In this document: positions 5,074 through 59,344 of the stretch, piece by piece | How the letters are laid out: the number at the start of each line of letters is the position of its first letter | Position numbering within the stretch: the stretch's first letter is position 1 | Assembly: GCA_977017645.1 (NCBI GenBank) | Contig: OZ360222.1 | Location: 68,448,001-68,512,000 of the forward strand | Direction: 5' to 3' | Length of the DNA stretch: 64,000 nt | Origin: Torpedo marmorata | Taxonomy: Eukaryota | Notes under the pieces: generated by a model | Told to the model about the DNA's origin: nothing | Database searches by the model: none | What the model saw: the letters and a program-made list of their open reading frames with translations, nothing else | Made by a program: the position numbers and the translations under genes

Positions 5074-5777
5074 ACATAACATAAACATAAATTTGACGCT
5101 GCAGTGGATATTATGGAACATTTTAAATTCCTTCAGTGGAATTTTTGAGGGTGTAAAATAAAGAGCTACTGGGAGCCAAAGAACAGTTGTAAGCATCACA
5201 CTTCTGAAAGTTTGGAATAGATTTCCAGAGACTGGGATGAAAAAGGAGAAAGCAAACAGCAGTGTGAAAAATGAATGTTTTCCTTTCCCATCGTTGAGTG
5301 GTTGAACTTTCATTCAATGAATGGAGCTGCTGATCCCTGAGAAATATCACGGTTGCAGGCAAATTTACAGGCTAATCTCAATGAACTTTTACATCCTTCA
5401 CTGCAATTTCTCCAGAAGCTGCTTCTTAAACCTCGCCAAGTTTGTAGCATCAGCACGTGCCAAAAATAAGACCTTTCCAGCTCCAAATATTTGCTCTTTG
5501 TGCAGCTGTAACCCTATAGTCTCTGATATTTTGGAGATGTACCACTTTGGTCATAAATTACTGAATGAAAAGGAACACAAATTTGTTCAGAATATTTGCC
5601 AGAAAAAATTTGCTTGAAATCAATCCATGTTTTGTCGCATTATGTCTTAAGGAAGACTGATCCAATCATTAAGCACCATGAAGAATGGTGCAGGTTGCAA
5701 AGAAAATAACTGTTTATTTCACTAAAATGTTCTGCCTTCTGCACCAAAAGGCAGTGATCCATGAGGAGATCATTGAA

Positions 5778-6605
5778 ATGGCGGCACTGCTGGAGCCGCT
5801 GTAGCGGCAGCGCTGCCGCTGGTGTGGACCCGCGGGGAGCTAGGGAGCGAAGATGCAGCGCTCCCGCGGGGTCCAGCCACCCAATCGACTGCCGTCGGTT
5901 CCGCACGGGCTTTGAGAGGCCCATTGAGGGAGCCGACGGTGGTTTTATTTGAGATCCCGTGACCGCGGGGTCTGTGCCAAAGATGGCAGTGCCTTTTAAT
6001 CGTCAGCAGCCACGATGGGCTGCAGACTCCGGGGAAGCAGAGGACTGGAGCAGGGCACCAGAGGACGGAGAGATCACCCCCCCCGTCTGAGGAGGAGAAG
6101 CGGAGGAGATGACCCACGGGACGGTGACCACCAGTGAGGGGCTCTGAGGCTGAAAGACCAGTGCATGCGGCGGGCTGCTGGCGACTCGAGGCGAGGAACC
6201 CGTGGAGGCTGTGGGCTGCTGGAGACTGCTGTCGGGAGACTTGCGTCAGGCTGCGGACTGCTGGAGACTGGCTCAAACTGTCTGGAGGAGTACCAGGTAT
6301 CGGGACCGGGATGCTTAGGGGTGCCGAGGGCGCCGAAGGGTTCCTGACCGTGTAGGAGGTTCGGATCTGGAGCTCGGGTTGCCGATGGTTTGGACTGGAC
6401 TCTGTGAGGCTGTGGAAGCGCTGGAGGCGAATCTACGGACACTGGGGGGACTCTCTTTTGCTTCTCTTTCTCTGACTATAAGGAATGTTAGAGGCGCTTA
6501 GGCAATTTCTGCCAGTGGCGAATCTGTTTGCCTTGCAGCAGGCAAAAAGAAATTTCATAGTAATAAAACAGTGTCATTTTACATGACAATAAATTGAATC
6601 TTGAA
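5778..6605 (+). mobile_element. GC-rich non-autonomous retroposon, copy 2
   Basis: Starts ATGGCGGC; tail interrupted by an L1 insertion and resumes at 8503-8523. Confidence 0.85.
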
Positions 6606-8502
6606 TTTTTTTTAAAAAATATTTTATTTAAAATTTTTAAATCACACAGTACACAGTTTAAAATGCAAATTTCTCAAATTACATGTGATACATTTTCACC
6701 CCCCCTCCCTCCCTCCCTCCCTCCCCTCCCTAACCCTCCCAAAAAGAAAGAAAGAAGAAGAAAAAGATAGAGTAAGGAGAATGTCAATCTAAAAAGAACA
6801 ATTATAAACTGATTTTGTTGTGGAGGATAGGTTCGCCAGCCAGATCCGATGTCCAGAGATCTTCAAATCCTTAAACCAACAGTTTTTATATATGGGCTCC
6901 ATACTTTCAAAAAGAAATGACACTTGTCACGTAGATTATATGTAATTTATATATAATATATATATAATGAAAGACAAGTTTAGTGTAGCAAATAATACAA
7001 TCTTTGCTTACTATCAAATTAGGGCATTTTTATTTGAAAGGTTGAGTCATGGTTTGACCTTACCAAGACAGACTGAATTGGAATTATTAGTTACTAATGG
7101 AGGTGTGCCTAAATTTATTTCTCAAATGTACAGATTGTTACAGAGGAAACTTCCTAAAACAGGAATTTATAAATCAAGATTAAATTGGGAAAAAGATTTG
7201 AATGTAACAATAGATGAAGAACACTGGAAAAAATTATGTAAACAAAGTATGACGAAGATTATTAATGTTAGATATAGATTGGTGCAATATAATTTTTTTC
7301 ATCAATTGTATTTAACGCCTAAAAGACTAAAGAAATTTAATCCGACGTTATCTGGTTTATGTTTTAGATGTAACAGTGAGGAAGGTTCCTTTGGACACTC
7401 CACGTGGTTTTGTCCAAAAGTGTTTGATTTTTGGTTGAAGGTTAAAAAGTTTTTGGATAGGGTACTGGGAGTTACACTCCCAATGGATCCTATGATATTT
7501 TTGTTTGGAGATATTGAGGGAACCAGTGTTAAAGTGAAATTAAATATGTATCAGACAGAATTTTTACGTATTGCTTTAGCAGTTTCATGGCAGATGGAGT
7601 TTAATGCTGATAAGTGTGAGGTGCTTCATTTTGGAAAGAAGAATCAGAACAGGACATATGTAGTAAATGGGAGAGCATTGATGAATACAGAAGAGCAGAA
7701 AGATTTAGGAATAACGGTGCATCGTTCCCTGAAGGTGGAAACTCATGTGAATAGGGTGGTGAAGAAGGCTTTTAGTCTGCTGGCCTTCATCAATCAATGC
7801 ATAGAATATAGGAGTTGGGAAGTGATGTTGAGATTATATAAGGCTTTGGTGCGGCCTAATTTGGAGTTCTGTGTGCAGTTCTGGTCGCCAAATTATAGGA
7901 AGGATATCAACAAATTGGAGAGAGTGCAGAGAAGGTTTACCAGAATGTTACCTGGGTTTAAGAATTTAGAGTACAAGGAGAGATTGAACAGATTAGGTCT
8001 TTATTCTTTGGAGCGTAGAAGGTTGAGAGGGGATTTGATAGAGGTATTTAAAATTATGAAAGGGATAGACAGAGTGGATGTGGATAGACTATTTCCATTA
8101 AGAATAGGAGAGATTGAAACAAGAGGACATGAGCTAAGAGTTAAGGGGCAGAGGTTTAGAGGTAACATGAGGGGGAACTTCTTTACTCAGAGAGTGGTAG
8201 CGGTGTGGAATGAGCTTCCGGGAGAAGTAGTGGCAGCAGAGTCAATTTTAGTATTTAAGAAAAAGTTGGACAAGTATATGGATGTGAGGAAAGTGGAGGG
8301 TTATGGGCAAGGTGCAGGTAGGTGGGACTAGATAGGAATGTTTTGGTTCGGTGCGGACTGGAAGGGCCTAATGGCCTGTTTCCGTGCTGTAATTGTTATA
8401 TGGTTATATGGTTATATGGTATTGCCATTACATGGAAGTCGGATGTAGATTTAGGGTTAGAAAGATGGCATGCAGAGTTGCGTTCATGTTTACCACTCGA
8501 AA
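6606..8502 (-). mobile_element. L1-clade LINE 3' fragment with 5' inversion
   Basis: 6606-6948 is the minus-strand ORF2 end (KITYNLR...SPYIKTVGLRI*) plus 3'UTR/polyA; 6967-8502 is the plus-strand upstream part ending LPLEK; TSD AAATTGAATCTTGAA at 6591-6605 and 8503-8517. Confidence 0.88.
7588..8420 (+). mobile_element. CR1 3' fragment nested in the L1 piece
   Basis: WQMEFNADKCEVLHFG...FFTQRVV; (TATATGGT)n tail; L1 sequence resumes IAITWKSD. Confidence 0.9.
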
Positions 8503-9359
8503 AAATTGAATCTTGAATCTTGATCTCCAGTTACATCGTGTCAGTTTCTCTCTGGTTATGTGGGTAAAGCTGTTACCCCAGTAAGATGACAACATTGCCA
8601 AGCGAGCAAATTTGGTTGGTGGGTGGGGAGGAAAGAGAAATTGGCAAACTAAGAAGAAACTGCATAATGAGATCCATGTATTAGATCGGCAAGCCCCAAT
8701 TTTCTTAAGCGCTTTAACTTGGTTGACATTATACCAATAATCATTTCTGGATGGCATTGGATGCTTCAGGAAATTGAAGTTTTGTTCACATTAGTGTATC
8801 TAATGTGAAATTAACAGCATTACTGTTTGCACAATGCCCTATTTCCACTCTTACTGAGAAAAGCGAGAGTTTTGAATACTATATGTGAATGTATGGAACC
8901 ATCACAGCACACCCATGAGCATGTCACTCTGCTTGTTGAATTTACCTTCATTTAAAAGGGACACCTGGGAGCCTTTAGTGGAAAGCTTCAGAACTGACTG
9001 CAAACTGCTCAATTTTCAACCACAAAATTCACTTTGACAATCAGTGAATACTTTCTCCATCATCCCTCAGACTCTCTCCCTCCAAACTTTGCCCTCCCCT
9101 CTTGCACACTCTCACTTCCCCATCTTCCTTCCATGCATTGGGTTTCCCCTCCCCTCCCCCTCGCTTTCTCTGGTTTTCTTCACACTTCCTTTTCTCCCCC
9201 CCTCATCCATCCCCAAACACTACCCATGCCTATCTACCTTGCTTTCTGTTCTGAGAGAAACCAGATGCACCATTGTTAAGCAGCATTCTCTCCGCAATGG
9301 GTCACATCAGAGTCCGGGGCAATTTTTGGCAGCAGCCTTGTGGCAGTCGGGAAGAAGTT

Positions 9360-12020
9360 AGAGGGCTGGATGAGGAATATTCATCACATTAAGGTGGGTG
9401 ATGGAACATTGCAGGAAATGTAAGGGATTCATGACGAGGACATCAAATATGAGTGAAGTCAAAGGCGAACCAACCCAAAATTTACACAGATTCTAAAACT
9501 CCATTGTAATTCTTCAAAGGGCAGTGAATTATGCACTGAAACCAAAATTGGAAGCAGAATTTGATAGGCTTCTCAGAGAGAAATTAATTGAATGAATGGA
9601 GTACTCTGAAACAGCAATACCCATTTTGTCACTGTTAAAGCATATTGGATATGCGAGGACTTGTAGAGGTTGTAGATAGACTGTTAATGAAGCTTCATCC
9701 TTAGCAGACCATACCATTCCTGGAATGAAAGGCTTATTTGCAGTCTTGTCTGGAGGACAACATTAAATTGAATATCTGCATATCAATTACCGTATATTTC
9801 GGCGTATAAGTCGAGTCTTGAAACCCTCAAAAATCTCTCAAAAATAGGGGTCGACATACGCCAGATATACTTTTGAGACCTTAAATTCAACTCAAAAAAA
9901 CGCTGGACACCGATTCGGCATATAAGTCAACCCTTGAAAACCGATTCGGCGTATAAGTCGACCCTTGAAAAACCAAAAAATACTCCAACTACCACAAATT
10001 CTCATTGAAAATTTTATTGAAAAAACACATTTAGAATCCTTCAAAATCACTATCACTATCATCGTCTGAGGCAAAGATCGCGGCAAGCACATCCGGGGTC
10101 TCACTGTTTAAACAGTCATCATATGGGTCCCAGTCTGTATCTGATGAGGCGGCTTCAGCTTCGTCGTCAGTGTCCCACAATAAATCATCTTCTGTACCAT
10201 CCATTGCACAAGAGACACCGCACTTTTTAAATGATTTTATTACAGTCTCTACTTTCACTTTGTCCCATGCTTTGAGAACAAAGTCATACAGCACATCAAG
10301 TGATGCAGCACGCATTTCCCCGCCTTTTGTAAATGATTTTTCTGCACTCTTCATCCAAGTATTCCATTCTTGACACACATGGTCTTTGAATGGCTTGTTC
10401 AAGCAGACATCGAGAGGTTGCAATAGAGACGTCAAACCACCCGGGAAACTGCCATGTACGTATTATTTAATGCTAATCTACTTTTAGTGTTCTCAGTTAA
10501 GTGGCTACGAAACATATCCCAGACCAGCAAACTCCGTTCCTTGTGTAAACCGCCTGGCCGCCTGTTCCACACATTGTCTATCCATAGTTTTACACCATTT
10601 TCATCCATCCATCCTTTTTCATGAAAATGTACAAAAATACCTGCTGAGAATTTTATTTTAGGTTTTATTTTGTGTTTGAAGATTACCATGGGTCTTAATT
10701 TCATCCCGTCGGCCATGCATGATAACACCACGGTAAACCTGGTCCGTTCATGTCCTGTACTCCTGGTTTGCACAGTTTTCACACCTTTCCATTCCACTGT
10801 TCTATTGCCTATCATGTCAAAATTCATGGGGGTTTCGTCCATGTTTCCAATATTTGCCAATGCAAACTTGTGTTTCTGCCGGTTACGTAAAATAAACTAG
10901 TGAAAACTTATAACTTTATGATCAAGATCTTTTGGTAGTTTCTGAGCAATTTTTGTTTTTTGTCGTAATACCAGATTTTTCCTGTTCATGAAATGGTTGC
11001 ACCAGCCTACTGTAGCTTCAAAATCATTACTGAGTTCTGGGTGCGACTTTGCCCACTTCAGTGCAAATGTTCTTATTTTATTTCGGGTGACTATGTAGCA
11101 ATCTTGCCTCTGTTCACGTACCCATGCTGTGACATGATTTTCCAACTCTGGCCAACGAGTGATTCCTCTTCTCATCGAACATTGCCTTTTTGGTATTTTT
11201 CTTAGAGTCTCTTCTTTCTTTCTCCAATCTCTTACCAACTTCTCATATACATCAAATTTTCTTGCAGCAGCACAGTTGTTGGTTTTCTTGGCCATGTCTA
11301 TTACTTTTAACTTAAAACGTGCTTCATACTTTCATCGTTTTGATGGAGCTTCCATGATAACAACCACCTTCAGCCAACGCCCAACAGCTCAGTCATCGCG
11401 ATTTTTGGGGTCATACGCTCGATATATGATAAAACCATTAAAATGAGGCTGAAAAATGAGGGTCGACCTATCTGCCGATCGACTTATACGCTGAAATATA
11501 CGGTAATAGTGTTGGGGGATGAGCCCGGAAAACATGAGCACAAGAAAACAGAAACAGGAGTAAGTTTGTCAGCCTTTTAAGTCAGCCCTACAGTTCAATG
11601 TGATCATTGTTTATCTGCCCCAGTCCTTATCGCCTCTTCTCTTCCAGTTCCCATAACCTTCAATTCCCTGATCTTTCATGTATCTACCTCATCTTTTATG
11701 AGCTACAATGATCTATCCTCCAAAAGCCTCTGGGATGGAAAATTCCAGAAAAGTTTTTGACTGTCAACACACACAAGGGCTTGTTCACATATGATTGATT
11801 ACCTTTTGAAGTTTTGTCTGTGCCTGCTATATCTCAGAGAAATATACAGATTTCTGCAGGGCATTCCCAGGAATGCTGAATGCTTGGATAATGTCCTGGT
11901 TATGGGAGTGTTGAGAGATGAACTCCTGTAGAATCTGAAAGAAACATTGAGCAGAATAAAAAAGGCAGACCCACATATAAAGACAAGTGTTCTTTGGAAA
12001 CCACAAGGATGCTAAAGATC
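9360..12020 (+). mobile_element. Ancient Gypsy-type pol remnant interrupted by pogo and a CR1 scrap
   Basis: Degenerate RT motifs: LFAVLSGGQ (~9735), TVNTHKGLF...LPF...PAI (~11760), LDNVLV (~11884). Confidence 0.55.
9790..11503 (-). mobile_element. pogo-family (POGK/Passer-like) DNA transposon, defective copy
   Basis: TIRs CCGTATATTTCGGCGTATAAGTCGA flanked by TA; transposase broken into ORFs 10897-11295, 10432-10860, 10031-10435. Confidence 0.93.
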
Positions 12021-13128: not shown

Positions 13129-13929
13129 TTACCACATCTTTTTGAACCTTTGGTTGCAGGTAAAGATTTGATGACATATATAATTTCCCAATACAATTCA
13201 TTTTAACTAATGTTAATTAATTTCAAATCCACATTCGCTCAAGCCTGTTGTTTTCAACTATTGATCAGAATCATTGATTGCATTTCTGTCCCCATTGATA
13301 CTGGTTGATCTGCTCACCTCTTCCAATATCTTCCTTTTATTTGGATTTCCTGTCATTGCAGTTCTTTGCTTCATTGTATTCACAAGCTTAGGTTTTCCCA
13401 AAGCTCTCTCCAGAGAGGCAGGTGACTTTCAGCTGCTTGTTCTTACCTGTTCCCCTCTCTGTGTGAAGGACACGTTTACATTGACTCTTGGCTTCCTCAC
13501 CTCAGATTCTCTGCAAGTGGTTGCAACAGATCTCTGCCATGTTTCTTGTTGTTGTGTTAGATAGATCATCCCGGCCGGATCTGTATTCACGAGTTATGAA
13601 TTGATCGACATTGATTTTAACAAAGACTAGATGGTTTCTTGAACACTCGGGTGTGGCAATATTGCTGGCTCCGGGTGGGTGGAGACTATTATGGCCCATC
13701 AGATTTTCCCTTATTCACCTGGGCATTTTTCAAGAAGAGGAAGATTTCTACTCACTCAGGTGGCACAGACATTTGGGAATTGTGAGAAGAATTTCCTGAT
13801 GGTAGGTACCATGTTTCCAGGAAGTAAACAGGACTTGTTCATCCTTGGAGAGTTCAAACTGAAGGTGTTTTTATCAGGTGGGCAAGATTCTCTGCGCTGC
13901 TGGTTCCTCACACCTGTACAATTTCCAAC

Positions 13930-14522
13930 TACGTCATCTGACATTGAAAACCTTGGCAAACCTCTACATCATGGCCTGGTATGGGGGCACCAATATCTCT
14001 GAGCAGAATACCCTGCAAAAGGTAGTGGATACAGCCCAATGCATCGCAGGCAAAACCCTCCCAACCATCGAGAACATCTACATGGAACACTGCCATCGGA
14101 GAGCAGCAGCAATCATCAAAGACCCACACCACCCAGGAAATGCTCTGTTCCCGCTGCTGCCATCAGGAAAGAGGTATAGGTGCCACAAGACTCGTACCAC
14201 CAGGTTCAGGAACAGTTGCTATCCCTCCACCATCAGACTCCTAAACAACAAAGTCAATCAGAGACTCATTTAAGGATTCTTACTTTGCACATTATTTATT
14301 ATTGAATATTTATTTTCTGCATTGCACAGTTTGTTTGCACATCTTTCTTGTTTACATTTCTCTCTTTTATATATGTATCTTTTCTTGAGTACAGTTTTTT
14401 TGGCACTACCAATAAATAGAAATTCTGCCTGGCTTGCAGGAAAAAGAATCTCAAGGTTGTATGTGATGCCCTGTCTGTACTCTGACCATAAATCTGAACT
14501 TTGAACATTTTGAACATTGAAC
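13930..14522 (+). mobile_element. Rex/Babar LINE 3' end
   Basis: IMAWYG...IIKDPHHPGNALFPLLPSGKRYR...FRNSCYPSTIRLLN; (TTGAAC)-type tail. Confidence 0.85.
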
Positions 14523-15954: not shown

Positions 15955-16657
15955 TTTCATGTGTGGACTTCAGGAGGAAATCAAGAGAACACAAACCAGT
16001 CCTCATCGAGGGGTCAACAGTGGAGAGGGTCAAAAACTTCAAATTCCTGAGTGTCAACATCTCTGAGGATCTGTCCTGGAGCCTCCATGCCGATGCAATC
16101 ACGAAGAAAGCTCGCCAGTGGCTATACTTTGTGAGGAGCTTGAAGAGATTCAGTATGTCACCAAAGACTCTCGGAAACTTGTAAAGGTGTACCGTGGAGA
16201 GAATTCTGGCTGGTTGCATCACTGTTTGATATGGAGGTGACAGCGCTTAGGGCAAGAAAAATCTCCAGAGGGTTGTTAACACGGCCTGCGACATCACGGG
16301 CACCAGTCTGCACTCCATCGGGGACATTTACAAGAGGCGGTGACTTAAGAAAGCAACCTCTATCCTCAAGGACCCTCACCATCCAGGCCATGCCCTCTAC
16401 CATTGGGAAAAAGATATTGGAGTCCGAAGACGAGCACTCAGCGGCACAAAGACAGCTTCTTCCCCTCGGCCATCAGATTTCTGAATGAATAATGAACCAT
16501 AGACACTACCTTACTTTGTCTTTTACTTTTTCTTGCACTTTTTAATTTATTTTGTAATGTGGTTATATAAATGTTTGCACGGTGATTGCTGTCACAAAGC
16601 AATGAATTTTGTGACATGTTCATGACAATAAATTCTGATTCTGATTCTGATTCTGAT
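15955..16657 (+). mobile_element. Rex/Babar LINE 3' fragment
   Basis: VERVKNFKFL, KKARQWLYF, KDPHHPGH; (TTCTGA)n tail like that of 1-474. Confidence 0.85.
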
Positions 16658-18329
16658 TAGATTTATTTCTGCTTGCTTGAATGTGTGGGGATTCTCACAG
16701 CTGGGGGAGCCAGCTGGGATCACTGCATCCCAGGCTCTGCAGTGGCCTGGTTGTTTCCCTGAACCCCTTGACATGTGTATTCTTTATGAGGATTTCAATG
16801 ACCCTTTCATTAAATCCAGGGTTTCTCTCTCTCTTTCTTGCAGCCTCTCCTTCCTGTGTATCATTTATATCCCATGTGATTCATGTTTGACTCCCATGTA
16901 GAATGTGTCATTAAGGTTAATGCCCTTTGCCAGATTACTGCATGGTAAAGAATCAGAAGCAATTTTCAGATGACCCTGATCCAGTCAGGAATAATGCAAG
17001 TCCTGTTTAGCTAATGTATCTGGGGAAATGCTGTTTCAAATATCTTTGTTAAACTTCACGATTTTTGTGGGGAAGATCAGATTTGGTGTTAGTGTTGCAT
17101 ATAGTACACATTTAAGCAGCAAAATTAATGCAAAGTACAACATCTAAGCAATGCTATAATAATCTTAAACATGGGCTGAAGGGCCTGTACTGTGCTGTGA
17201 TGTTCTATGTTACCGATTAAAAACAAAACATTTATCTGCATGTTTCTTTCAAGATTTTAATGGATATCAATTCTTTACTCTATCTAAAAGTAGTGGTAAT
17301 ACAAGTATTCATGGCTAATTGTGTAAACTATGTTAAAATTGAATGGGTTAGCTCATTCTTCATTTGTCTAATTCAGGTTATCCCTCTTCCCACTGAATCT
17401 ATAGAAGTAACCATCAAAAAGCTCTGAAGTCATCAGAGGTTAACAGACAAAATTCCTTTTCAGATTACTCAAGATGTATTTCCAAAACTGCATTTTGTAA
17501 TTCTATGTAAAGATAAAGACTTACAGCTGAAAGACAAAATTGTTCTAATCCTTCAAAGCACTGGAACACAATAACAATCTTAGCAAGTTCCTATTTTCCA
17601 TTATATTTAGATTAAAAATTACTTTTATTCCAGATAAATTTTCTCTTTTAACAACACTGAAATTTATGTACATACTTCCAATAAACATGGACACCATTGA
17701 TCAATACGTGCTTGTTTATCTCAAAGTGGCTTCTGCTAGTACGCTTACGTAAATGTAAAGACACAGCTTCCATCCACTTCAACATGTGAGCTTTATTTAT
17801 GTGATGAAAATAAATGATTCAGAGCACAGCAACTACCAACTAACAAAGGACAACATCTCCCTTTATGTTGATCAGGATATTCAGTCCTGGTAAAGACTGC
17901 TCATTTACAGAAATTAAAATGGACAGACGAGGTACCAGCTAAACAAAACTCGTTGAATAAAACCCTCAGATTCCCACATACTGTACAATTCCACAACCTG
18001 AGATGGATATGCTAAGTATGTTCAGCAAGAAAACATCCATCCCGCCAGCTCTGGCTCTGGCTTCACTGGTATGTGAAATGTGGCAGTGTTGGGAACTAAG
18101 CTGACTTGGCAGCCTTTCCCCCCCCCCATGTGTTTGCTTAGCCTGGTGTCAGGTCTCGGTGCATGACAGTGGCTCTCTTTCTCCCACACTGCTCCTGTGT
18201 TCCTGTGAGAAGTTGATGCAGGTTTGCTAAAGTGGGGAGGAACTTGCAAGAATCTGTGCAGAATGAAAGGATACTGCAAAGTGCAACCCTTGTCTAAACT
18301 CACAGAGACAGCCAGGTTTTCAGACTAAA

Positions 18330-18575
18330 TTTTAAATTAAATTTAGACATACAACACAGTAACAGGCCCTTCCGGCCTATGAGCCCGTGCCACCCAATTA
18401 CACCCTATTAACTTACAACCCCCGTACGTTTTGAAGGGTGGGAGGAAACCAGAGCACCTGGAGGAAACCCATGCAGACACAGGTAGAACTTACAAACTCT
18501 TTACAGACAGCGCTGGATTCAAACCTCTGTTGCTGGTGCTGTAACGGTGTTGCGCTAACAGCTACGCTAACCGTG
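18330..18575 (-). mobile_element. tRNA-derived SINE (V-SINE/HE1-like)
   Basis: Minus strand has B-box-like GGTTTGAATCC, central TCCGGTTTCCTCCCAC-like core, CR1-like 3' end GGGCC...GGCCTGTT..GTGTTGTATGTCTAAA. Confidence 0.75.
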
Positions 18576-18697
18576 AGATTTGGGAATAAAGTTAGAAATG
18601 AAATATTTGAAGAAGAAAATCTGTGTCAAGTTTTTATTTTTTATTAAGTTGCTGTTGAAAATTGAGACATTTTGCAAGCACTGAAACCAGGGTTGAA

Positions 18698-19050
18698 ACA
18701 CAAAAGTCTGCAGATGCTGTGATTGTAGTAAACACACAAAAATGCTGGAGGAATTCAGCAGGTCTCACAGCGTCATAGGAGGAAAAGATACAGTATACAT
18801 TTCAGGCACGAGGCCTTCTTAAAGATATGAGCAAAAAGCAGGCAGGTGCCTGAATAAAAAGGCTAGGGGAGAAGGGAAGAAAGGGCAGGGGAGGAGCACA
18901 GGCCAACAGAGAAAAGGTGATAATTGGACGTATAGGAGGACAGGAAAGGTGAGAATTGATCAGAGAGAGAGAGAGCTAGAGGAAAGGAGAAATAGGGATG
19001 GGGAAGGGGAGAGACAAGGGGGGGGAATTATTTGAGAACAGGTTTGGTCA
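18698..19050 (-). mobile_element. Penelope-derived 3'/pseudo-LTR fragment, degenerate
   Basis: Similar to 61950-62230 (CTCAGCAGGTC...TTTC.GG...GAG.CC.TTC, purine-rich tract). Confidence 0.55.
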
Positions 19051-19625: not shown

Positions 19626-20255
19626 GGTAGTCAAGGGTAATTGATAAATGACCTTGTTTCAGCACTATGTTAAACAGTCTAGATATTTATTGCATCATTA
19701 CTTCTATATGTGTTACACTTGTCACAGTGCCTGGCCAAATACAATAAATAGTTCACCACTTGAAAAAAACAGCCTCTGAAAAACTGGCACTGTGAGTTTC
19801 TGTGAAAGTGTGTCTCATCACTAACTGATATATCTGGCAATGTCACCAGTGACTGAGATATTTGAAAATGAAAAACAATACTGGGCAATAAGGTGTTAAC
19901 AAAATAAAACAAAATCCATGCCTTGTAATTGCACAAGACCCCAGCTTCCATTTCAGTTTCAAGTTAACATCTCAAGTAGCTTGATTGGAAAAGATAAGAG
20001 TGGGCTTTGAAATTGGGGAAAATTAGACAGCATTCTTATTTGTTATCTAGCAACTCTATTTAGAAATTCACTGGAGTTTGAGGAGATTTGGTATGTCCGC
20101 AAAGACTCGCAAATTTCTACAGGGGTACCGTGGAGAGCATTCTGACCGGTTGCATCACTGTCTGGTATGGAGGGGCCAATGCATAGGAGAGGAAAAGACT
20201 ACAGAAGGTTGCAAATTCAGCCAGCACCATCATGGTCATTAGTCTTCTCTCCATT

Positions 20256-23200
20256 TATTTTTTATTTTTTTATTTTTATTTTATTTAAACTTTTAAATCA
20301 CAAAATACATAGAGTAAAATATAAAATTATCAAAATACATGTGATATATTTTCGCCCCCCCCCTCCCTTCCTTAACACCCCCATCCCCACTAATCTAATA
20401 ATAAAGTAACAATAAAAAATAAAAATAGTAAAAAAGAAAAAATAGAATGAGGGGAATATCATCTATAAACTAAATCTATTACGGAGGTCAAATTTGCCAG
20501 CAGATCCGATATCTAGAGATCTTCAAATCCTTAAGCTCACAGCTCTCATATATGGGCTCCAAATTTTCAAAAAGAAATTATATTTATTACATAAATTATA
20601 AGTAATTTTTTCCAGTGGTATACACGAACGGAGTTCTGCATGCCATCTTTCTAATCCTAAATCTAAATCAGATTTCCAAGTAATAGCAATGCATTTTTTT
20701 GAAACTGCTAAAGCAATTCGTAAAAATTCTACTTGAAACATATTTAATTTCTTTTTAATACTAAATTTTCTAATATCTCCAAATAAGAATAACATAGGAT
20801 CCATTGGGAATGTAATATTAAATACTTTATCTAAAAAAGTTTTAACTTTCAACCAAAAATCTTGAATCTTTGGACAAAACCATGTAGAATGTACAAAAGA
20901 ACCTTCCTCATTATTACATCTAAAACATAAACCTGATAGTGTCGGATTAAATTTCTTTAATTTTTTAGGTGTTAAATATAATTGATGAAAAAAATTGTAT
21001 TGTACTAATCTATATCTAACATTAATAATCTTCGTCATACTTAATTTACATAATTCTTTCCAATGATTCTCATCTATTCGTATATTCAAATCTAATTCCC
21101 ACTTTAATCTTGATTTATGAATTCCTGCTTTAGGCATTTTCCTTTGAAACAATTTATACATTTGAGAAATAAACTTATTAACTTCTCCATTAGTAACTAA
21201 TAGTTCTAATTCATTTTGTCTTGGTAAAATCAAAGCATGACCTAATTTCTCAATTAAAAAAGTTTTAACTTGATAATAAGCTAAAAATGTATTATCTAAT
21301 ATATTAAATTTATCTTTCATTCTTTGAAACGTAATAAATCTTCCAGCTTCAAAACAATCATTAATCTTCTTAATACCTTTTTGAAACCAAATTCTAAATA
21401 ACTGATTGTTAATAGTAAATGGAATAAGTCCATTTTGATATAAAGGCATATTTGAAGAAATTAATCCTCTTCCACCTATCTCTTTATCCAACTTACCCCA
21501 TATTTCTAACAAATGTTTGATAATCGGTGAATTTTTCTTTTTTACTGATATTAATTTAGAATCCCATTTATAGATAATCTCTTCTTTATAACTCTCTCCT
21601 ATATTATTTAATTCTATTTTAATCCAAGCTGACGTTTTATTTGAATCAAAAAATTCATTAACAAATTTTAATTGAGCTGCTTTATAATAATTTTGAAAAT
21701 TAGGAAGTTGCAATCCTCCTAACTCATAGTTCCAAGTTAATTTTTCCATACTTACTCTTGCTAACTTTCCTTTCCACAAAAATTTCCTAACAATAAAGTT
21801 TAAATCTTTAAAAAATTTTTGAGGAATTCCAAAAGGAATTGATTGAAAAAGATATTGAACTCTTGGAAAAATATTCATTTTAATACAATTTACCCTTCCC
21901 ATTAAAGTTATAGGTAAATCTTTCCAATTCTCTAAATCTTTCTTTATTTTCACAAATAATGGTAGATAATTTAGTTTATATAAATTTTCCAATTTTGTAT
22001 CAACCTTAACCCCTAAATATTTAATTCCCTCTTTAGCCCATTTAAATTGCGTTACTTCTTTACATCTAGTATAATCACCTTGAGATAAAGCCATTATTTC
22101 ACTCTTATCTGAATTAATTTTATATCCAGATACTTCACCATATTCTCTTAGTATAATAGATAATTGTTGAAGTGACATAATAGATTTTGTCATATATATC
22201 AATACATCATCTGCAAACAAACTAATCTTATGTTCTTCCATACCAACTTTAATACCTACTATTTTAGGATCTTTTCTAACTAATTCGGCTAAAGGTTCTA
22301 TTGCCAAAACAAATAATGCTGGTGATAGGGGGCATCCCTGTCTCGTAGATCGTGTTAAAGAGAATTTTGACAATGTTTGTCCATTTGTAACCACTTTATC
22401 TGATGGTTCTTTATATATAGTTTTAATCCAATTTATAAATATATTAACAAAACCAAATTTTTCTAATACCTTAAATAAAAAATTCCATTCTAATCTATCA
22501 AAAGCCTTTTCAGCATCTAATGTTACAACTAATGGTAAATCCTCCTTCTTTTTGTTCAAACCAATTAAACTAATTAATCTAGCTATATTATCCTTTGAAT
22601 ATCTATTTTTAATAAAACCAGCTTGATCTAAATGTATCAAATCTGGTAGATATTTAGCCATTCTATTTGCTAAAATTTTTGCCATTATTTTATAGTCTAC
22701 ATTCAACAATGAAATAGGTCTATATGATTCAGTTTTTAATACATCTCTATCTTTCTTTGGTATAACTGTAATTATAGCATTTAAAAATGTTTTCGGTAAT
22801 AAATGAGTTTCTGTAATTTGATCTAATACTTCCATATACGGAGGTATTAATAAATCTTTAAATTCTTTATAAAATTCTGATGAAAACCCATCATCACCAT
22901 TCTTCAACGATGAAAAAACTTCAGTAACTTCCCTCATTGTAAAAGGTAAGTCTAAAGAATCTCTACTCCGATCATTCAATTTAGGTAATATAATTTTAGA
23001 TAAAAATCTATTAATTTTAGAATCATCTTGATCAATCTGTGATCTATATAAATTCTGATAATAATCTTTAAAAGATTCATTTATTTCTTGAGGTTTATAA
23101 GTTATTTCTCCAGTATTCTTCTTCCTTATAGCATTTATAGTTTTAGAAACTTGTTCTTTTTTCAATTGCCATGCCAAAACTTTATGTGCTCTTTCTCCTA

Positions 23201-24175
23201 ATTCGTAATACCTTTGTTTAGTTTTCTCAATTAATTTTTCCATTTTATATGTTTGCAATAAATTATAATGTAATTTCTTCCTTGTTAAACAGTTTCTTTT
23301 TTGAATTGATCTATTTCTCTGTAAGTCTTTTTCCATAAGTTCAATCTCCTTCTCTAATTTTTCTGATTCTCTAAGATAATCTTTCTTAATTTTAACTGAA
23401 TAACTTATTATTAAACCTCTTAAATAAGCTTTTAAAGCTTCCCATACTATAAATTTATCATTAATAGAGTTAGTATTTATTCGTAAAAATTCTTGAATTT
23501 CTTTTCTTATATATTCACAAAAATCTTTCCTTTTTAATAACGATGAGTCAAATCTCCAATTATATATAGTTTTTTCTCTTTCCGGAATTATACAAGACAA
23601 TAACAAAGGCGAATGATCAGAAATTACCCTCGCTTTATAAGATACTTGCGATATTCTATCTTGAACTTGTGATGATAATAGAAATAAATCTATTCTAGAA
23701 TATGAATCATGTCTAAATGAATAAAATGAATAATCCTTTTCCCTTGGATTCAATCTCCTCCAAATATCTATTAAATTTAAATCTTTCATCAAACTAAGAT
23801 TTTTTTTCACAATTTTAGGTCTGACAGATGATCTTGAAGTTCTATCCATTATTGAATCTAGACAACAATTGAAATCTCCCCCAATTAAAATATTCTCATT
23901 AGCATCTGATAAATGTAAAAAGGCGTCCTGAATAAACTGCTCATCATCTGGATTTGACACATATAAATTCATAAGCGTCCAAAATTCTGAATAAATTTGA
24001 CAATGTATCAAAACATATCTTCCTGCTACATCTGTAATTACTGATTGTATCTTAAAAGGTAATTTTTTATTAACTAATATAGCTACACCTCTTGCTTTAG
24101 AATTAAATGAAGAAGACACCACATGACCAACCCACTCTCTTTTTAATTTTTGATGTTCCAAATCTATCAAATGAG
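20256..24175 (-). mobile_element. AT-rich L1-clade LINE, 5'-truncated, young
   Basis: A-rich tail; 17-bp TSD TTAGTCTTCTCTCCATT at 20239-20255 and 24176-24192; TT/AA-type site. Confidence 0.95.
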
Positions 24176-24191
24176 TTAGTCTTCTCTCCAT
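20523..24191 (-). CDS. L1 ORF2 (partial APE endonuclease + RT + C-terminal Cys/His motif), open throughout
   Basis: GGDFN, SRID, SDHSP, YRPISLLNVDYK, LDAEKAFD, RQGCPLSP, LFADD, YLG, CFRC..H..WFCP; no stops; expression not shown. Confidence 0.8.
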   Translation of the reverse strand: MERRLTHLIDLEHQKLKREWVGHVVSSSFNSKARGVAILVNKKLPFKIQSVITDVAGRYVLIHCQIYSEFWTLMNLYVSNPDDEQFIQDAFLHLSDANENILIGGDFNCCLDSIMDRTSRSSVRPKIVKKNLSLMKDLNLIDIWRRLNPREKDYSFYSFRHDSYSRIDLFLLSSQVQDRISQVSYKARVISDHSPLLLSCIIPEREKTIYNWRFDSSLLKRKDFCEYIRKEIQEFLRINTNSINDKFIVWEALKAYLRGLIISYSVKIKKDYLRESEKLEKEIELMEKDLQRNRSIQKRNCLTRKKLHYNLLQTYKMEKLIEKTKQRYYELGERAHKVLAWQLKKEQVSKTINAIRKKNTGEITYKPQEINESFKDYYQNLYRSQIDQDDSKINRFLSKIILPKLNDRSRDSLDLPFTMREVTEVFSSLKNGDDGFSSEFYKEFKDLLIPPYMEVLDQITETHLLPKTFLNAIITVIPKKDRDVLKTESYRPISLLNVDYKIMAKILANRMAKYLPDLIHLDQAGFIKNRYSKDNIARLISLIGLNKKKEDLPLVVTLDAEKAFDRLEWNFLFKVLEKFGFVNIFINWIKTIYKEPSDKVVTNGQTLSKFSLTRSTRQGCPLSPALFVLAIEPLAELVRKDPKIVGIKVGMEEHKISLFADDVLIYMTKSIMSLQQLSIILREYGEVSGYKINSDKSEIMALSQGDYTRCKEVTQFKWAKEGIKYLGVKVDTKLENLYKLNYLPLFVKIKKDLENWKDLPITLMGRVNCIKMNIFPRVQYLFQSIPFGIPQKFFKDLNFIVRKFLWKGKLARVSMEKLTWNYELGGLQLPNFQNYYKAAQLKFVNEFFDSNKTSAWIKIELNNIGESYKEEIIYKWDSKLISVKKKNSPIIKHLLEIWGKLDKEIGGRGLISSNMPLYQNGLIPFTINNQLFRIWFQKGIKKINDCFEAGRFITFQRMKDKFNILDNTFLAYYQVKTFLIEKLGHALILPRQNELELLVTNGEVNKFISQMYKLFQRKMPKAGIHKSRLKWELDLNIRIDENHWKELCKLSMTKIINVRYRLVQYNFFHQLYLTPKKLKKFNPTLSGLCFRCNNEEGSFVHSTWFCPKIQDFWLKVKTFLDKVFNITFPMDPMLFLFGDIRKFSIKKKLNMFQVEFLRIALAVSKKCIAITWKSDLDLGLERWHAELRSCIPLEKITYNLCNKYNFFLKIWSPYMRAVSLRI

Positions 24192-26351
24192 TAAGGACAC
24201 CTTTAAGATGCAATGTCTCAAGAAAGCAGCCTTTATCCTCAAGGACCCTCACCACCCAGGCCATGTCCTTTTCTTACAGCTACCATCTGGAAGGAGGTAC
24301 AGGAGACTGAAGACTAACACCCAACATTACAAAAACAGCTTCTTCCCCACCACCATCAAATTTCTAAATGGACAATGAACCTTCAGACACTACCTCACTT
24401 ATTTCTCTTTTTGCACTAATTATTTATTTTAAATATTGTATTAACGGAACTGAGATTTTTAGCAATTTTTGCACCTGTAATGCACAATACTGCTGCCACA
24501 AAAGAACAAATTTTGTAACACATTCATGACAATAAATCTGATTCTTATTTTGAATCTGGATAGTTTCATGGTTTATACTAAATTCATCCATCATTCCTTC
24601 ACTCATCACCCCTCCCCAACTTAATCACCACTGCTTTCACTTATTAGCTGGATCCCATCTTTTTTTGTAACATATTTGGTCTGTCAAACCATGTTGATTT
24701 GTTTTCCATCAGCTTCATTCCTCCTTGGACTTTTCCTGGAGCTTTAACTAAATATATACCTTGGTGGTCTCTTGTTATTTCCTTAAGAATTGGAACCGAA
24801 ACCCTCCATTCAGCCAATCAAGTGTACCCCGGCAATCCATTCACTCATGTATTTCTCTGTAACCTTTTCTCTCACATGACCTCACCCCACCCCCCTTATC
24901 ACCACCCCAATTCTTCCACCAGCCAACCACAATTAGAGTAATGCACAGTAGCTGATTATCTTTAGAACCAGCACATCTTTGGAATGTAGGAGGAAACTAG
25001 AGTACGCAGGTCTGCTGCTGTCTGTGTGGCCACATGGTGAATGTGCAAAGCCCACACAGAGAGCAGCAGATATCAGAATTAAACCTAGGCCACTGGATCA
25101 GTGGGAGAGCTCACCACCTGTGGTGACACCCTGTCACTCACTAGTTATTTAGCCTAAATGACTTCCAAACAGTGGCACAGTGATGAAGTGTTTTGAGAGG
25201 CCGGTGTGAAAGCACATCAGCTCCTGTCCGAGCAGTGACATGGATCCATTCCAATTTGCCTACCGCAGCAACAGGTTTTCGGCAGATGCTACCTCACTGG
25301 CTCCACCATCATCCCCTCAAAACTGATCAGTAAACTCCAATACCCCACTGTGTAATTGGATCCTGGATTTCATCACCTCCAGACTCCAATCAGTGCGGAT
25401 TGGCAAGAACATCTCCTCCACAATCTCCATCAGCTCAAGAGCACCACAGGGCTTCATTCTTATCCCCCTGCTCTACTCGCTTTACACCTATGACTGCGTG
25501 GTTCGGTACAACAATTACATCACCTATAAATTTGCTGATGATACCACTGTAGTGCGTTGCATAAAAAGGGGTGATGAGTCAGCATACAGGAGGGAGATTG
25601 AAAACTTAGCTGAATGGTGTACTAACTACAACCTCACACTCAATGTCACCAAAACCAAGGAGCTGATTGTAGACTTTAGGAATGGAAAACCAGCCATGTA
25701 TGATCCAGTGATCATTGGGGATCAGAGATGGAAGGGTGTACAAATTTAAGCTCCTGGGAGTTACTATCTCAAAGGAACTTTCCTGGACCCAACACACGAA
25801 TGTCATCGTGAAGAGAGCAAGACAGCTCCTCTATTTCCTCAGGAGTTTGCAGAGGTTTGGTATGACATCGAAAACCTTGGCAAACTTCTACAGATGTGTG
25901 CTGACCGGCTGCATCATGGCCTGGTTTGGGAGCACCAATATCTCTGAGCAGAAAGCCCTGCAAAAGGTAGTGGACACAGCCCAGTACATCACAGGCAAAA
26001 CCATCGAGAAAATTCACATGGAACACTGCCGTCGGAGAGCAGCAGCAATCATTAAGGATCCACACCACCCAGGACATGCTCTGTTCTCGTTGCTGTCATC
26101 AGGAAAGAGGTATAGGTGACACAAGACTCATACCACCAAGTTCAGGAACAGTTGTTACCCCTTCACCATTAGATTCCTAAACAACAAATTCAATCAGAGA
26201 CTCAATTAAGGACTCTTACTTTACACATGATTTATTATTGAATATTTATTTTCTATATTGCACAGCCAGTTTGTTTACATTTCTTTCTTTGTTTACATTC
26301 TCTCTTTTGCATACGTATCTATTCTTGAATATAGATTTTGCACTACTGATA

Positions 26352-27649
26352 CAATGCCCACCATAATGTTTGGGACAGTCACTTTTTAACTTTATTTGCC
26401 ACTGTGGTCCACAGTTTTTAAATTTGTAATCAGACAATTCACATGTAATTAAAGTGCACATTCCAGATTTTATTCAAGGCTAATTTACAGCGCCAGCGAT
26501 CGGGACCGGACCTGGGTTCGAATCCCGTGCTGTCTGTAAGGAGTTTGTACGTTCTCCCCGTGTCTGCCTGGGTTTTCTCTGGGGGCTCCGGTTTCCTCCC
26601 ACCCTTCAATGGGGTGTAAATTGGGCGGCATGGACCCGTAGGGCCGAATTGGCCTGTTACAGTGCTGTATGTCTAAATTTTAAAATTAAATTTGTATACA
26701 TTTTGGTTTGACCATGTAGAAATTACAGCACTTTTTATACATCGTCTCCTCATTTCAGGGCACCATAATATTTGGGACATTTGACTTCACAGGTGTTTGA
26801 GAGTATTCAGGTATGTTTAATTGCTTCATTGGTGCAGGTATAAGAGAGCTAAACTTGCTTCTAAGCTTTTGATCACCTTTGGTGTCTGTAGTTACCATTT
26901 TTCAACATGATGACCAGAGTTGTGCCAATGAAAGTCAAAGAAGCCATTATGAGGCTGAAAAACAAGAATAAAACAGTAAGAGATATCGCCCAAACATTAG
27001 GATTACCAAAATCAACTGCTTTGGAACATCATTAAGAAAAAAGAGTATACTGGTGAGCTCAGAAATCGCAAAGGGACTGGTATTCTAAAGAAAACCTCCA
27101 GTGCGGATGACAGAAGAATTCTCATCATAATGAAGAAAAATCCCCAAACCTATATCCAACAGATCAGAAACACTCTTCAGGAGACAGGTGTGGGTGGATA
27201 TGAAATTGGCTACTGTCTGCAGAAGATTTCATGAACAGAAATACAGAGGCTACACTGCAAAATGCAAACCATGCCAAAGGTGGTATGCTTTGGATCTTGG
27301 GCAGTTCCTTTACGCCTCCACACTTTGCTCTTGCCATCACTCTGATACAGGTTAATCTTGATCTCATCTGTCCACAAGATCTTTTTGTCCAGAATTCTGC
27401 AGGCTATTTTACATACTTCTTCAGAAGGCATGTGTGGATATGTCAATGACTACTGTCTGCAGACGACTTCATGAAAAGAAATACAGAGGCTACACTGCAG
27501 GATGCAAACCATTAGTTAGTCACAGAAAGGATGGCCAGATTACAGTTTGCTAAGAAGTATTTAAAAGAGCCTGCAAATTTAAAACTGTGGAGCACAGGGG
27601 CAAATAAGGAAAAAATCTGCCTTTGTCCCAAACATTATGGAGGGCACTG
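26352..27649 (+). mobile_element. Tc1-family transposon, internally deleted and rearranged
   Basis: TIR CAATGCCCACCATAATGTTTGGGACA / TGTCCCAAACATTATGGAGGGCACTG; left TA; inner DR ~26759-26780; HTH TVRDIAQTLGLPKST; ILWTDE present on the opposite strand. Confidence 0.85.
26484..26692 (+). mobile_element. tRNA-derived SINE nested in Tc1
   Basis: B box GGTTCGAATCC, core CTCCGGTTTCCTCCCAC, CR1-like 3' end. Confidence 0.8.
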
Positions 27650-30645
27650 GCAGGGGGGTAGGAATCAGAATGAGAAAGCAGAGAGTAGGGTAGAAGAACA
27701 CCTAGATTTGAAGGAAGAGAGGAACCAGAATGTTAAAGTTAATGAAGGAGAGGGTAATCAAAGGAGTGTATGTGGGGGACATTCTCTCAAGTGTATATAT
27801 TTCAATGCAAGGAGCATTGTTAGAAAGGTGAATGAGCTTAGAGTATGGATTGATACATGGAAATATGATATTGTAGCCATCAGTGAAACTTGGTTGCAGG
27901 AGGGGCATGATTGGCAGCTAAATATTCCTGGATTCCGTTGTTTTAGGCGTGATAGAACAGGGGGGATAAAAGGTGGAGGAGTCGCAGTGCTTGTTAGAGA
28001 AATTATTACAGCGGTGCTATGGCAGGATAGATTGGAGGGCTCGTCCAGTGAGGCTATTTGGGTGGAATTGAGGAATGGGAAAGGCATGAAAACACTAATG
28101 GGAGTGTATTATAGACCACCGAATGGGCAGAGGGAATTAGAGGAGGAAATTTGTAAGGAGATAGAATATATGTGTAATAAACATAAGGTGGTGATTAAAG
28201 GTGATTATAACTTTCCACACATTGACTGGGACGCCCATACTGTAATAGGGCTGGATGGGTTGGAGTTTGTCAAATGTGTTCAGGAAAGTTTTCCAAATAA
28301 ACACATAGAAGAACCGACTAGAGAGGGGGCAGTATTGGATCTCCTATTTGTGAACGAGATAGGTCAGGTGACAGAGGTTTGTGTTGGGGAACACTTTGGG
28401 TCTAGTGATCATAATACCATTAGTTTTAGGTTGATAATGGAGAAGGATAGGGCTGGGCCTATGGTTGAGATTCTTGATTGGAATAAGGCAAATTTCAAGG
28501 AGATGAGGAAGGATTTAGAGGGTGTGGATTGGGATAATTTATTTTCAGGGAAGGACGTCACAGATAAATGGAGGATATTCAAAGGGGAAATTTTGAGAGA
28601 ACAGAGTTGGTTCGTCCCTGTGAGGATTAAAGGAAGAGTTAGAAAAAATATAGGGAGCCTTGGTTTTCAAAGGATATTGGGAATTTGGTTCGGAGGAAGA
28701 GGGATGTGTACAACAGGTATAGACAGCAGGGAATAGATGAGGTCCTTGAGGAATATAAGGAGTGTAAAAAAAATCTTAAGAAAGGAATTAGAAAGGCTAA
28801 AAGGAGATATGAGGCTGCTTTGGCAGGAAAGGTAAAAAATAAATCCAAAGGGTTTCTACAGGTACATTAAAAGCAAAAGAATAGTGAGGGATAAAATTGG
28901 GCCCATTGAGGATCAGGCGGGGAGGCTATGTGAGAAGTCAGAGGAGATGGGGGAGATTTTAAATGAATTTTTTTCTTCAATATTTACAAAGGAAAGAAAT
29001 ATTGAGCCAGGTGAAGTAAGGAAATCTGGCAGTGATGTCATGGATAATATAAAGATTAATGAGGAGGTAGTATTGGCTATTTTAAAGAGTATAAAGGTGG
29101 ATAAATCTCCAGGTCCTGACAGGATATTCCCGAGGACCCTGAGGGAGGTTAATGTACAAATAGTGGGGGCTCTGACATAAATATTTAAAATGTCACTGGC
29201 CACAGGGGAGGTGCCGGAGGATTGGAGGATAGCTCATGTCCCGCTGTTTAAGAAGGGCTCCAAAAGTAAACCTGGAAATTATAGGCCTGTGAGTCTGACA
29301 TCGGTGGTAGGTAAATTAATGGAGAGTGTTCTTAGAGATGGTGTATACAGTTATTTGGAAACACAAGCATTAATTAGGAGTAGTCAACACGGTTTTGTTC
29401 GTGGTAGATCACGTTTAACAAATCTCATAGAGTTTTTCGATGAGGTTACTAAGAAGGTTGACGAGGGGAAGGCTGTGGATGTTTCCTATATGGACTTTAG
29501 TAAGGCATTTGACAAGGTTCCGCATAACAGGCTAGTTAAAAATGTTCAAGCATTAGGTATTAACAACGAAGTAGTGAAATGGATTCAACAATGGTTGGAT
29601 AGGAGATGCCAGAGAGTAGTGGTGGAAAATTGTTTGTCAAATTGGAGGCTGGTGACTAGTGGTGTGCCTCAGGGATCGGTACTGGGTCCATTGTTGTTTG
29701 TCATATATATTAAAGATCTAGATGATAGGGTGGTAAATTGGATTAGTAAGTATGCAGATGATACGAAGATTGGTGGTGTTGTGGACAGTGAAGAGGGATA
29801 TAAAAGTTTGCAGGGGGATATAGGACAGTTAGAAGAGTGGGCGGAAACATGGCAGATGGAGTTTAATACTGATAAATGTGAGGTGCTACATTTTGGTAGG
29901 ATTAATCAGCAAAGGTCATACATGTTAAATGGAAGACAATTGAGGAGTGCAGTAGAACAGAGGGATTTAGGAATTCTGGTACATAATTCCCTGAAAGTTG
30001 AGTCACACGTAGATAGGGTGGTGAAGAAAGCATTTGGTATGTCAGCGTATTGAATACGGGAGTTGGGATGTCATGTTGAAGTTGTATAAGGCATTGGTGA
30101 GGCCAAATTTGGAATATTGTGCGCTGTTTTGGTTGCCGAATTACATGAAGAACAGTGCAGAGGAGATTTACAAGAATGTTGCCTGGGTTTCTGGGTTTGA
30201 GTTACAGGGAAAGGTTGAACAGGCTGGGACTTTATTCCCTCGAGCGTAGAAGGTTGAGGAGTGATTTGATAGAGGTATTTAAAATTATGAAGGGGACAGA
30301 TAGAGTCAATGTGGATAGGCGTTTTCCATTGAGAGTGGGGAAGATTCGAACAAGAGGGCATGGATTGAGATTGAAGTGGGAAAAGTTTAGAGTAAACATG
30401 CATGGTAATTTATTCACTCAGAGGGTGGTGGGAGGGTGGAACGAGCTTCTGGCCGAAGTGGTAGATGCAGGTTTAATTTTAATGTTTAAGGAAAAGTTGG
30501 ATAGGTATATGGATGAGAGAGATGTGGAGGGTTATGGGCCAGGTGAAGGTCAGTGGGACTAGGTGGGAGAAGGTGTTCGGCATGGACTAGAAGGGCCAAA
30601 CTGGCCTGTTTCTGTGCTGTAAGTGTTATATGGTTATATGGTTAT
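27650..30645 (+). mobile_element. CR1 LINE family A, nearly full ORF2, disrupted
   Basis: YFNARS, ETWL, YRPP, SDHN, KSPGPD, GVPQGSVLGP, YADDTK; frameshifts; (TATATGGT)n tail. Confidence 0.95.

Positions 30646-45295: not shown

Positions 45296-45296
<1 letters not shown>

Positions 45297-45335
<39 letters not shown>
45297..45335. repeat. (TA)n microsatellite
   Basis: Direct inspection. Confidence 0.95.
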
Positions 45336-45340
<5 letters not shown>

Positions 45341-59168: not shown

Positions 59169-59344
59169 TATTTTAGTGTATAATGTAGGAAAACATGTCA
59201 GGTAATATATCAGCACTTCCAACAATGAGCTAATTTTGTCACGTCTTCATTGAAATATCACATTCTGATTGCAACTTAATTTCTCAGTACAGAGGACAAA
59301 GTAAAAATATAGCTGTTTGAAGGGAGGTGAAGCCTTTTACATTA

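Follow-up and report, generated by a model that had tools for sequence, protein, structure and literature searches.

A GC-rich repeat of a ray genome, probably a Pol II-transcribed retroposon mobilised by a Rex-type LINE

We report five copies of a GC-rich element of about 860 bases in a 64-kb stretch of ray DNA (hereafter the window), recovered by a BLAST search with one copy against the window and by alignment, and we consider it probable that this element is a non-autonomous retroposon, transcribed by Pol II and mobilised by a Rex-type LINE. We propose that an internal promoter, rich in CpG and bearing a ATGGCGGC site of YY1-like form, would place the transcription start a few bases upstream and in this way give the copies their common 5' end. 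The resulting RNA is predicted to fold into three parts: a domain at the 5' end, a central one that a helix of 21 pairs closes, and a hairpin in the tail. Judging from the homology of the tail, the LINE protein would bind the 3' stem-loop together with CAATAAA-(TTGAATC)n, and reverse transcription would be primed at the nick, aided by a short likeness between the target and the tail repeat. The final step would leave the insertions that can be read in the window, with 0-1 base duplicated at two testable sites, extra 5' bases at one of them and a single 5'-truncated copy.

Copies, boundaries and insertion junctions

The first copy (1546-2309, +) is without about 105 bases at its 5' end and lies inside the endonuclease region of a CR1. 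The second, with which the search was made (5776-6605, +), has its full length apart from three internal deletions (10, 9 and 11 bases); the third (15824-14947, -) is full-length with degenerate tail repeats; the fourth (31121-31976, +), the reference for the contig alignments described below, is full-length and has a 9-base deletion in common with the fifth (40604-41438, +), which has a full-length start and a deletion near its 5' end and lies inside a minus-strand CR1. Dispersed over both strands and shorter than 1 kb, the copies make up 4147 of the 64000 bases (6.5%) and have a GC content of 58-60%, against 42% GC (CpG observed/expected 0.44) for the window, which bears out the five-copy GC-rich repeat described in an earlier note on this DNA. 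Their pairwise identity is 90.7-93.2%. Copies 4 and 5 are the closest pair (93.2%) and have several substitutions in common besides the deletion, which is real and from which a subfamily had already been proposed. The majority sequence of the five copies is 859 bases long, with 62% GC and a CpG observed/expected ratio of 0.90; the copies diverge from it by 2.9-3.7% outside CpG and by 10-12% at CpG, and on account of these values we regard the family as fairly young and methylated.

In four of the five copies, each with a different flank, the start lies no more than 2 bases from one and the same ATGG(C/T)GGC site, which under uniform truncation would occur by chance with a probability of about 2e-7; 5' ends scattered at random, with sequence running on into an ORF, were not seen in the window. 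In copy 2 the YY1/Kozak-like start motif occupies 5776-5787 (+) and precedes a GC hairpin, which spans positions 5-42 of the majority sequence. The four copies had been said to begin at one motif preceded by AG; the coincidence of their starts is upheld, but the exact ATGGCGGC is found in only two of the four, copies 4 and 5 reading ATGGTGGC, and the AG likewise precedes it in two of four. A second motif, AAGATGGC, lies at 5979-5989 (+), and its ATG opens a frame of 181 codons in the majority sequence that is frameshifted in copy 2; this internal site is present as described, but in its exact form, CCAAGATGGC, only in three of the five copies. The two motifs of the AAGATGGC type agree with the YY1 site given as GCCATCTT in PMC6454616, according to which the 5' ends of mouse L1 cluster near a YY1 site. 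All five copies end in TGACAATAAA(TTGAATC)n, as first noted, with the qualification that 30 tail bases are inverted in copy 2. Where a Tx1/L1 piece breaks off, at 8506-8523 (+), stands a lone (TTGAATC)2.5 that may represent a sixth insertion consisting of the tail only, which would give four full-length copies among six. The region 8421-8523 consists of an 85-base Tx1/L1 piece (8421-8505) between a CR1 end and this lone repeat, and its join sits on a common AAAAATT, resembling a template jump.

Copies 1 and 5 each split a CR1, and comparison with other CR1 copies of the window as empty sites shows 0-1 duplicated base at both, in agreement with the earlier observation of two split CR1s without a clear target-site duplication. 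At the 5' junction of copy 5 there are some 9 additional bases, and the target of this copy resembles the tail repeat. The left flanks of copies 2, 3 and 4 hold tail-like 4-6-mers (TTGAA, TGAG, TGAAT), which may be short duplications, although without empty sites these are indistinguishable from tail microhomology. The junctions are like those of the zebrafish L2 LINE ZfL2-2, for which additional 5' bases, microhomology on the 3' side and blunt joins are described (PMC2666801). At the testable sites we found no TG..CA ends, terminal inverted repeats or duplication of 4-6 bases, and the element is very unlikely to be a solo LTR or a MITE. We also rejected an internal MITE with the 21-base arms of the helix described below as its bounds, there being no flanking direct repeat.

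CR1, Tx1/L1 and other repeats crowd the window; the labels CR1 and Tx1/L1 rest on our own reading of the ORFs. A presumed Tx1/L1-type LINE with an open ORF2 of 1241 codons lies at 20523-24248 (-) and has a second copy, 82% alike, at 46585-49085 (+); further Tx1/L1 pieces occupy 6607-7587 and 8421-8505, one of them directly adjoining the tail of copy 2. A Tigger/pogo-type DDE transposon with an open transposase of 452 codons is found at 34228-35586 (+), with a second copy (91% alike) at 9788-11412 (-). The region 41887-46040 is LTR-retrotransposon-like, with three repeats of about 335 bases (two direct, one inverted) around a gag/pol-like frame, and each of these repeats also contains a AAGATGGC motif. 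At 62246-64000 lies a Penelope-like element with a GIY-YIG domain, present as a 451-base inverted pair (99%) that encloses a 47-base tandem array. Many older repeats, all short and probably 3' ends of SINEs or CR1s, are located at 18325-18855, 26488-26693, 38499-38698, 50997-51508, 53537-53852, 58505-58740 and 59342-59578.

LINE-derived tail and predicted RNA fold

The tail of copy 2 (6518-6605, +) comprises a stem-loop, CAATAAA and (TTGAATC)n. The last 70 or so bases of the element score 52 against the LINE tail at 14423-14492, compared with a maximum of 35 in 500 shuffles, and 33 against a second piece of the same LINE tail at 30644 (shuffle maximum 32); for three other LINE tails of the window the p values are 0.04, 0.10 and 0.16, and the common part is only the final ATGACAATAAA. 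By this likeness, the 3' end of the GC-rich element comes from an autonomous LINE. The LINE in question, our candidate partner family, is represented by a 3' piece at 13863-14509 (+), whose tail is the closest match to that of the element, and by a longer piece at 25327-26346 (+), which is 86% identical to 13964-14409; it encodes a reverse transcriptase (RT) followed by a PF09004 domain, as identified with Pfam. Identity of its RT to four RT+PF09004 relatives is 55-59%, whereas the CR1 RTs of the window reach 27-30%, and 195 relatives were found at E<=1e-20; of the 120 that were listed, those with names are teleost proteins. We tentatively take this LINE to be of the Rex1/Babar type, and RSg-1, which is considered below, to be a Rex-type LINE. 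Rex1 has a conserved 3'UTR followed by short repeats (PMC6274825).

The stem-loop of the tail is predicted to be intact in four of the five copies and in two of five LINE tails, where it stands just before CA(A/C)TAAA; stem-loops mark the ends of those LINEs and SINEs that belong to the stringent type (PMC3747384). The inversion of copy 2 (6557-6586, +) covers 30 bases, 28 of which match the reverse complement of copy 3, and fits a real hairpin at the DNA or RNA level. The body of the element matches no LINE piece of the window, none of the 120 RT proteins of the partner group matches it in any frame, and no full-length partner LINE with the same head was confirmed in the two sequence collections scanned. 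The LINE 3'UTRs of the window are short and AT-rich. An isolated LINE tail of about 90 bases at 30644-30732, of the same family as 14412-14509, is joined to CR1 3' repeats and can be read as an extremely truncated insertion or as tail capture. Other pieces of RT+PF09004-type LINEs, belonging to at least two other families, lie at 1-475, 16026-16656, 20073-20254 and 24034-24558, three of them ending in CAATAAA and an ATTCTG-type repeat.

The sense strand of the element is predicted to fold strongly, a feature absent from the earlier note. For copy 4 the predicted energy of the sense strand is -380 kcal/mol (z -5.5 against 20 shuffles), and the antisense strand has a z of -3.4. In the majority sequence, an ungapped stem of 21 pairs connects positions 312-332 with 704-724, joining a purine-rich with a pyrimidine-rich tract, and a stem of 16 pairs connects positions 112-127 with 154-169, each with four G-U pairs. 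In copy 2 the predicted long-range helix has its 5' arm at 6089-6109 (+) and its 3' arm at 6452-6472 (+), and the predicted 16-pair helix, also with 4 G-U pairs, joins 5887-5902 to 5929-5944 (+). A 21-pair stem was reached in none of 300 shuffles (150 global, maximum 18; 150 local, maximum 19), and all five copies keep 20-21 of the 21 and 14-16 of the 16 pairs. The antisense strand has no stem of more than 12 pairs, and the G-U pattern argues that the sense RNA is the folding strand. Between the sequencing runs described below, 6 of 8 paired sites with a letter other than that of copy 4 stay paired, compared with 6 of 11 other differences from copy 4, in a comparison that covered 37 of about 260 differences and in which two of the six were kept by construction.

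Abundance and relatives beyond the window

Contigs from 4 of 16 matching sequencing runs (9 studies, 8 organism codes), each of the four under a different organism code, were aligned on copy 4, numbering 130,075 (run X1, possibly from the source of the window itself), 39,230, 38,156 and 4,380. The family is abundant in all four runs, which span the element end to end, with the depth dropping to 0-10 in the flanks, and run X7 spans both flanks too. Given five copies in 64 kb, along with the 130,075 contigs of X1, which are not a count, the element is very likely multi-copy throughout the genome; the depth ratios, although depth is no copy number, suggest 1e4-1e5 copies or more. Sibling subfamilies with the same body and diverged last 100 bases are revealed by loose contig ends near 31836-31846, together with joints that rejoin at 31946; a second variant among the loose ends, read by eye, is apparently 9 bases shorter too. 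The summed contig depth near the 5' end (position 43) amounts to 0.17 of the 3' level in X1 and to 0.25 in X11, possibly an RNA run, and increases gradually; this measure cannot rank parts of the element and would be biased by GC content, by changes private to copy 4 and by sibling families sharing the 3' part. It hints that 5'-truncated copies are commoner genome-wide than in the window and that full-length copies are perhaps a minority; the fixed 5' start claimed at first holds for the window (four of five copies), whereas depth gives a weak hint of many truncated copies elsewhere. No upstream loose ends at the 5' edge occur among the 24 listed of 3564 loose ends.

A search with the protein of the open frame of copy 4 matched 3 proteins among 1.84 billion, two of which are gene models of Narcine bancroftii. 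The inserts in the MICAL-like 2a and C19orf25 models of this species translate the repeat with 39-73% identity per stretch and therefore point to diverged relatives of the element in an electric ray; in these models (P0001, P0003 and P0004) the repeat pieces are exonised or mis-annotated. A motif scan of metagenomes gave 6 loci, all of them chance matches of 20-21 bases, and the element was not found in prokaryote and viral scans.

Transcription, origin and relation to known systems

No tRNA gene was found in the element by ARAGORN, and it has neither an A box nor a B box. No Rfam family was detected on copy 4 (E<=3) or on the whole window, and no tRNA, 5S or 7SL match at E<=5 for copy 2 or E<=3 for copy 4; three weak Rfam matches on copy 2 (E 2-4), far below the gathering score, were discarded as chance. 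These results agree with the earlier statement that no tRNA, 5S or 7SL head is recognisable, and its companion, that there is no RT or transposase, is borne out by the finding of no Pfam family in 8 frames of the element. Neither HDV descriptor matches, nor a hammerhead core, nor an Rfam match revealed a self-cleaving ribozyme. The element contains two internal T4 runs. Such runs tend to stop Pol III, and we therefore take them as evidence against Pol III transcription. Stalling of the RT would presumably cut 3' of the 5' hairpin, whereas the copies include this hairpin. The description as a non-autonomous retroposon is thus sustained by the LINE-derived tail, the LINE-like junctions and the missing Pol III head.

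A possible view of a LINE 5' end is offered by one cichlid/killifish family of the partner group, in which four of five N-terminally extended protein models read K-M-A-P with unrelated upstream residues. Hence, at the protein level and for this one teleost family, the LINE seems to begin at AAR-ATG-GCN, with its ORF opening at once. This lends support to a start signal shared by the element and the teleost family; the motif itself is short and common. The internal Pol II-type promoter proposed in the earlier note is accordingly plausible as an inferred feature, given the like motif at the apparent 5' end of a teleost LINE and the T4 runs that count against Pol III. An ORF that starts at the motif itself leaves, on the other hand, little room for a long 5'UTR. 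Of the suggested fusion of a LINE 5'UTR with a LINE 3' tail, the tail stands as LINE-derived, whereas a 5'UTR origin of the body of about 720 bases is unproven.

Most likely, this body arose as a GC-rich, promoter-bearing RNA that was joined to a LINE tail, rather than by plain internal deletion of the partner. The latter route, which is the version suggested at first, would derive head and tail alike from a single autonomous LINE of rays whose 5' region is long and GC-rich. It would account for the LINE-derived tail and for the resemblance of the start motif to the apparent start of the teleost family, and internal deletion is a known route for RTE, Ingi, Vingi and R2 (PMC5786205). We nevertheless judge it unlikely, given the teleost ORF that begins at the motif, the lack of matches to the body among the LINE pieces of the window and the 120 RT proteins of the group, and, as a weak point, the finding of no longer proteins that carry the sense or the antisense open frame.

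Another derivation would make the element the long 3'UTR of a coding LINE, known only from truncated copies that stop at a preferred site. Truncation is indeed seen in copy 1 and in the lone tail at 8506, and the rise of depth toward the 3' end points weakly in the same direction; the four starts within 2 bases of each other in different flanks, the inclusion of the 5' hairpin, the lack of upstream loose ends among those listed, and the short, AT-rich 3'UTRs of the window LINEs make this derivation improbable.

We regard as equally improbable a non-autonomous LINE with a single protein, in the manner of HAL1, HeT-A or Ag-Sponge, whose Arg/Gly-rich 181-codon frame would encode an RNA-binding helper. 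The majority sequence does contain this sense ORF, which begins at the second ATG in a strong Kozak context, together with an antisense frame that is stop-free over the whole length. A sense ATG ORF of at least 181 codons arose in 20-38 of 2000 local shuffles and the antisense frame in 36-50 of 2000 (p about 0.01-0.04 each). The 9-base subfamily deletion keeps the frame, as would the similar shortening of the second variant, and silent changes make up 6 of 14 sites between run majorities versus 30 of 118 among copy mutations, with one of the silent sites probably an indel artefact. However, the frame is open in one of the five copies, namely as a 178-codon ORF at 31328-31864 (+) in copy 4, and its homologs are translated repeat copies only. 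It has no Pfam match; phmmer returned nothing beyond these copies and one chance match, a phage-tail-like protein (P0002) that was rejected; and its Atlas recognition value of 922 is far below that of known families. The antisense frame, equally open, has no Pfam, Atlas or longer-protein match. We conclude that the 181-codon frame is probably a by-product of composition; calling the element non-coding is right as to RT and Pfam families, and has to be qualified for the two open frames of the majority sequence.

That the element is an ordinary SINE with a tRNA, 5S or 7SL head diverged beyond recognition, or else a solo LTR or MITE, is hardly credible: its length below 1 kb, abundance and LINE tail would suit a SINE, and RSg-1 does partner salmonid SINEs (PMC3747384), but copies as young as these (about 3% divergence outside CpG) should show a working Pol III head, none was found, the internal T4 runs speak against one, and the ends and target duplications expected of an LTR or MITE are lacking at the testable sites. 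SINEBase (PMC3531059) asks of a SINE, among other features, that its head match tRNA, 5S or 7SL at 60% identity over 60 bases and that Pol III transcribe it. With ARAGORN, Rfam and the A/B boxes standing in for the SINEBase bank, the element would not be classed as a SINE by this definition, though it would work like one.

Among known systems, the Pol II-transcribed retroposon that we favour recalls the SVA of hominoids, which is GC-rich, composite, non-coding, transcribed by Pol II and mobilised in trans; it differs from SVA in having no VNTR, Alu/ERV part or poly(A), and in its stringent-type tail and little or no duplication. Hominoid SVA is named in PMC5381603, a review whose section on cartilaginous fish, in the text available, names only L2, CR1 and SINEs. 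Like the bipartite non-autonomous LINEs (RIME, NARTc, Vingi/RTE derivatives and R2 internal-deletion elements; PMC5786205), the element encodes no RT or endonuclease, and it resembles them in its LINE-derived 3' end, its probable Pol II transcription and its defined 5' end. In contrast to those, which the available text of that 2018 source reports from RTE, Ingi, Vingi and R2 only, its tail is of the RT+PF09004 (Rex) type, no ribozyme was found in it, and its 5' part resembles a teleost family of the partner group at the level of a motif only. Two bird SINE families with GC-rich heads of unknown origin (PMC5786205, PMC7245038) similarly combine a GC-rich, non-tRNA 5' part with a LINE-derived 3' part in uniform copies, but they carry bipartite RTE sequence, whereas the present element has a structured body of about 720 bases and a Rex-type tail. 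A borrowed LINE tail is also found in SlmI, Hpa I and OS-SINE1, which are tRNA/5S SINEs with tails of RSg-1, and in the HE1 SINE of sharks and rays (PMC3747384), the latter from the same animal group; these, unlike the element, start with a Pol III head, and the partner of HE1 is HER1. Rex1/Babar LINEs themselves (PMC6274825), the likely partner, share the arrangement of a conserved 3'UTR and short repeats, and differ in encoding an endonuclease and an RT. A description of the GC-rich family was not found in the literature searched, a scope outside which most subscription journals, Repbase Reports and Dfam lie, and quite likely an automatic repeat-library entry for it, perhaps unnamed, exists already.

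To our knowledge, nearly every short LINE parasite described so far relies on a Pol III head, and the Pol II exceptions come from few clades. A bolder reading, which we offer tentatively and with more doubt than confidence, is that of an undescribed, very abundant Pol II retroposon of rays that parasitises Rex1/Babar LINEs by copying a YY1-type start and a 3' stem-loop around a structured body; its fold, and possibly a basic protein of 181 residues, would be selected for mobility, and it would perhaps make up several percent of ray genomes. If our interpretation is true, this family, young and abundant, with a tail of the Rex type and a structured body, extends the list of Pol II non-autonomous elements to a LINE clade not listed so far. 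The element would be a clean substrate for asking what the Rex RT recognises, and whether YY1 sets the starts of LINEs outside mammals. It is still a transposon family, of importance to annotation and as a marker of presence or absence: through it, CpG-rich, promoter-like sequence is scattered through ray genomes (6.5% of the window) and enters gene models, as at the two Narcine loci.
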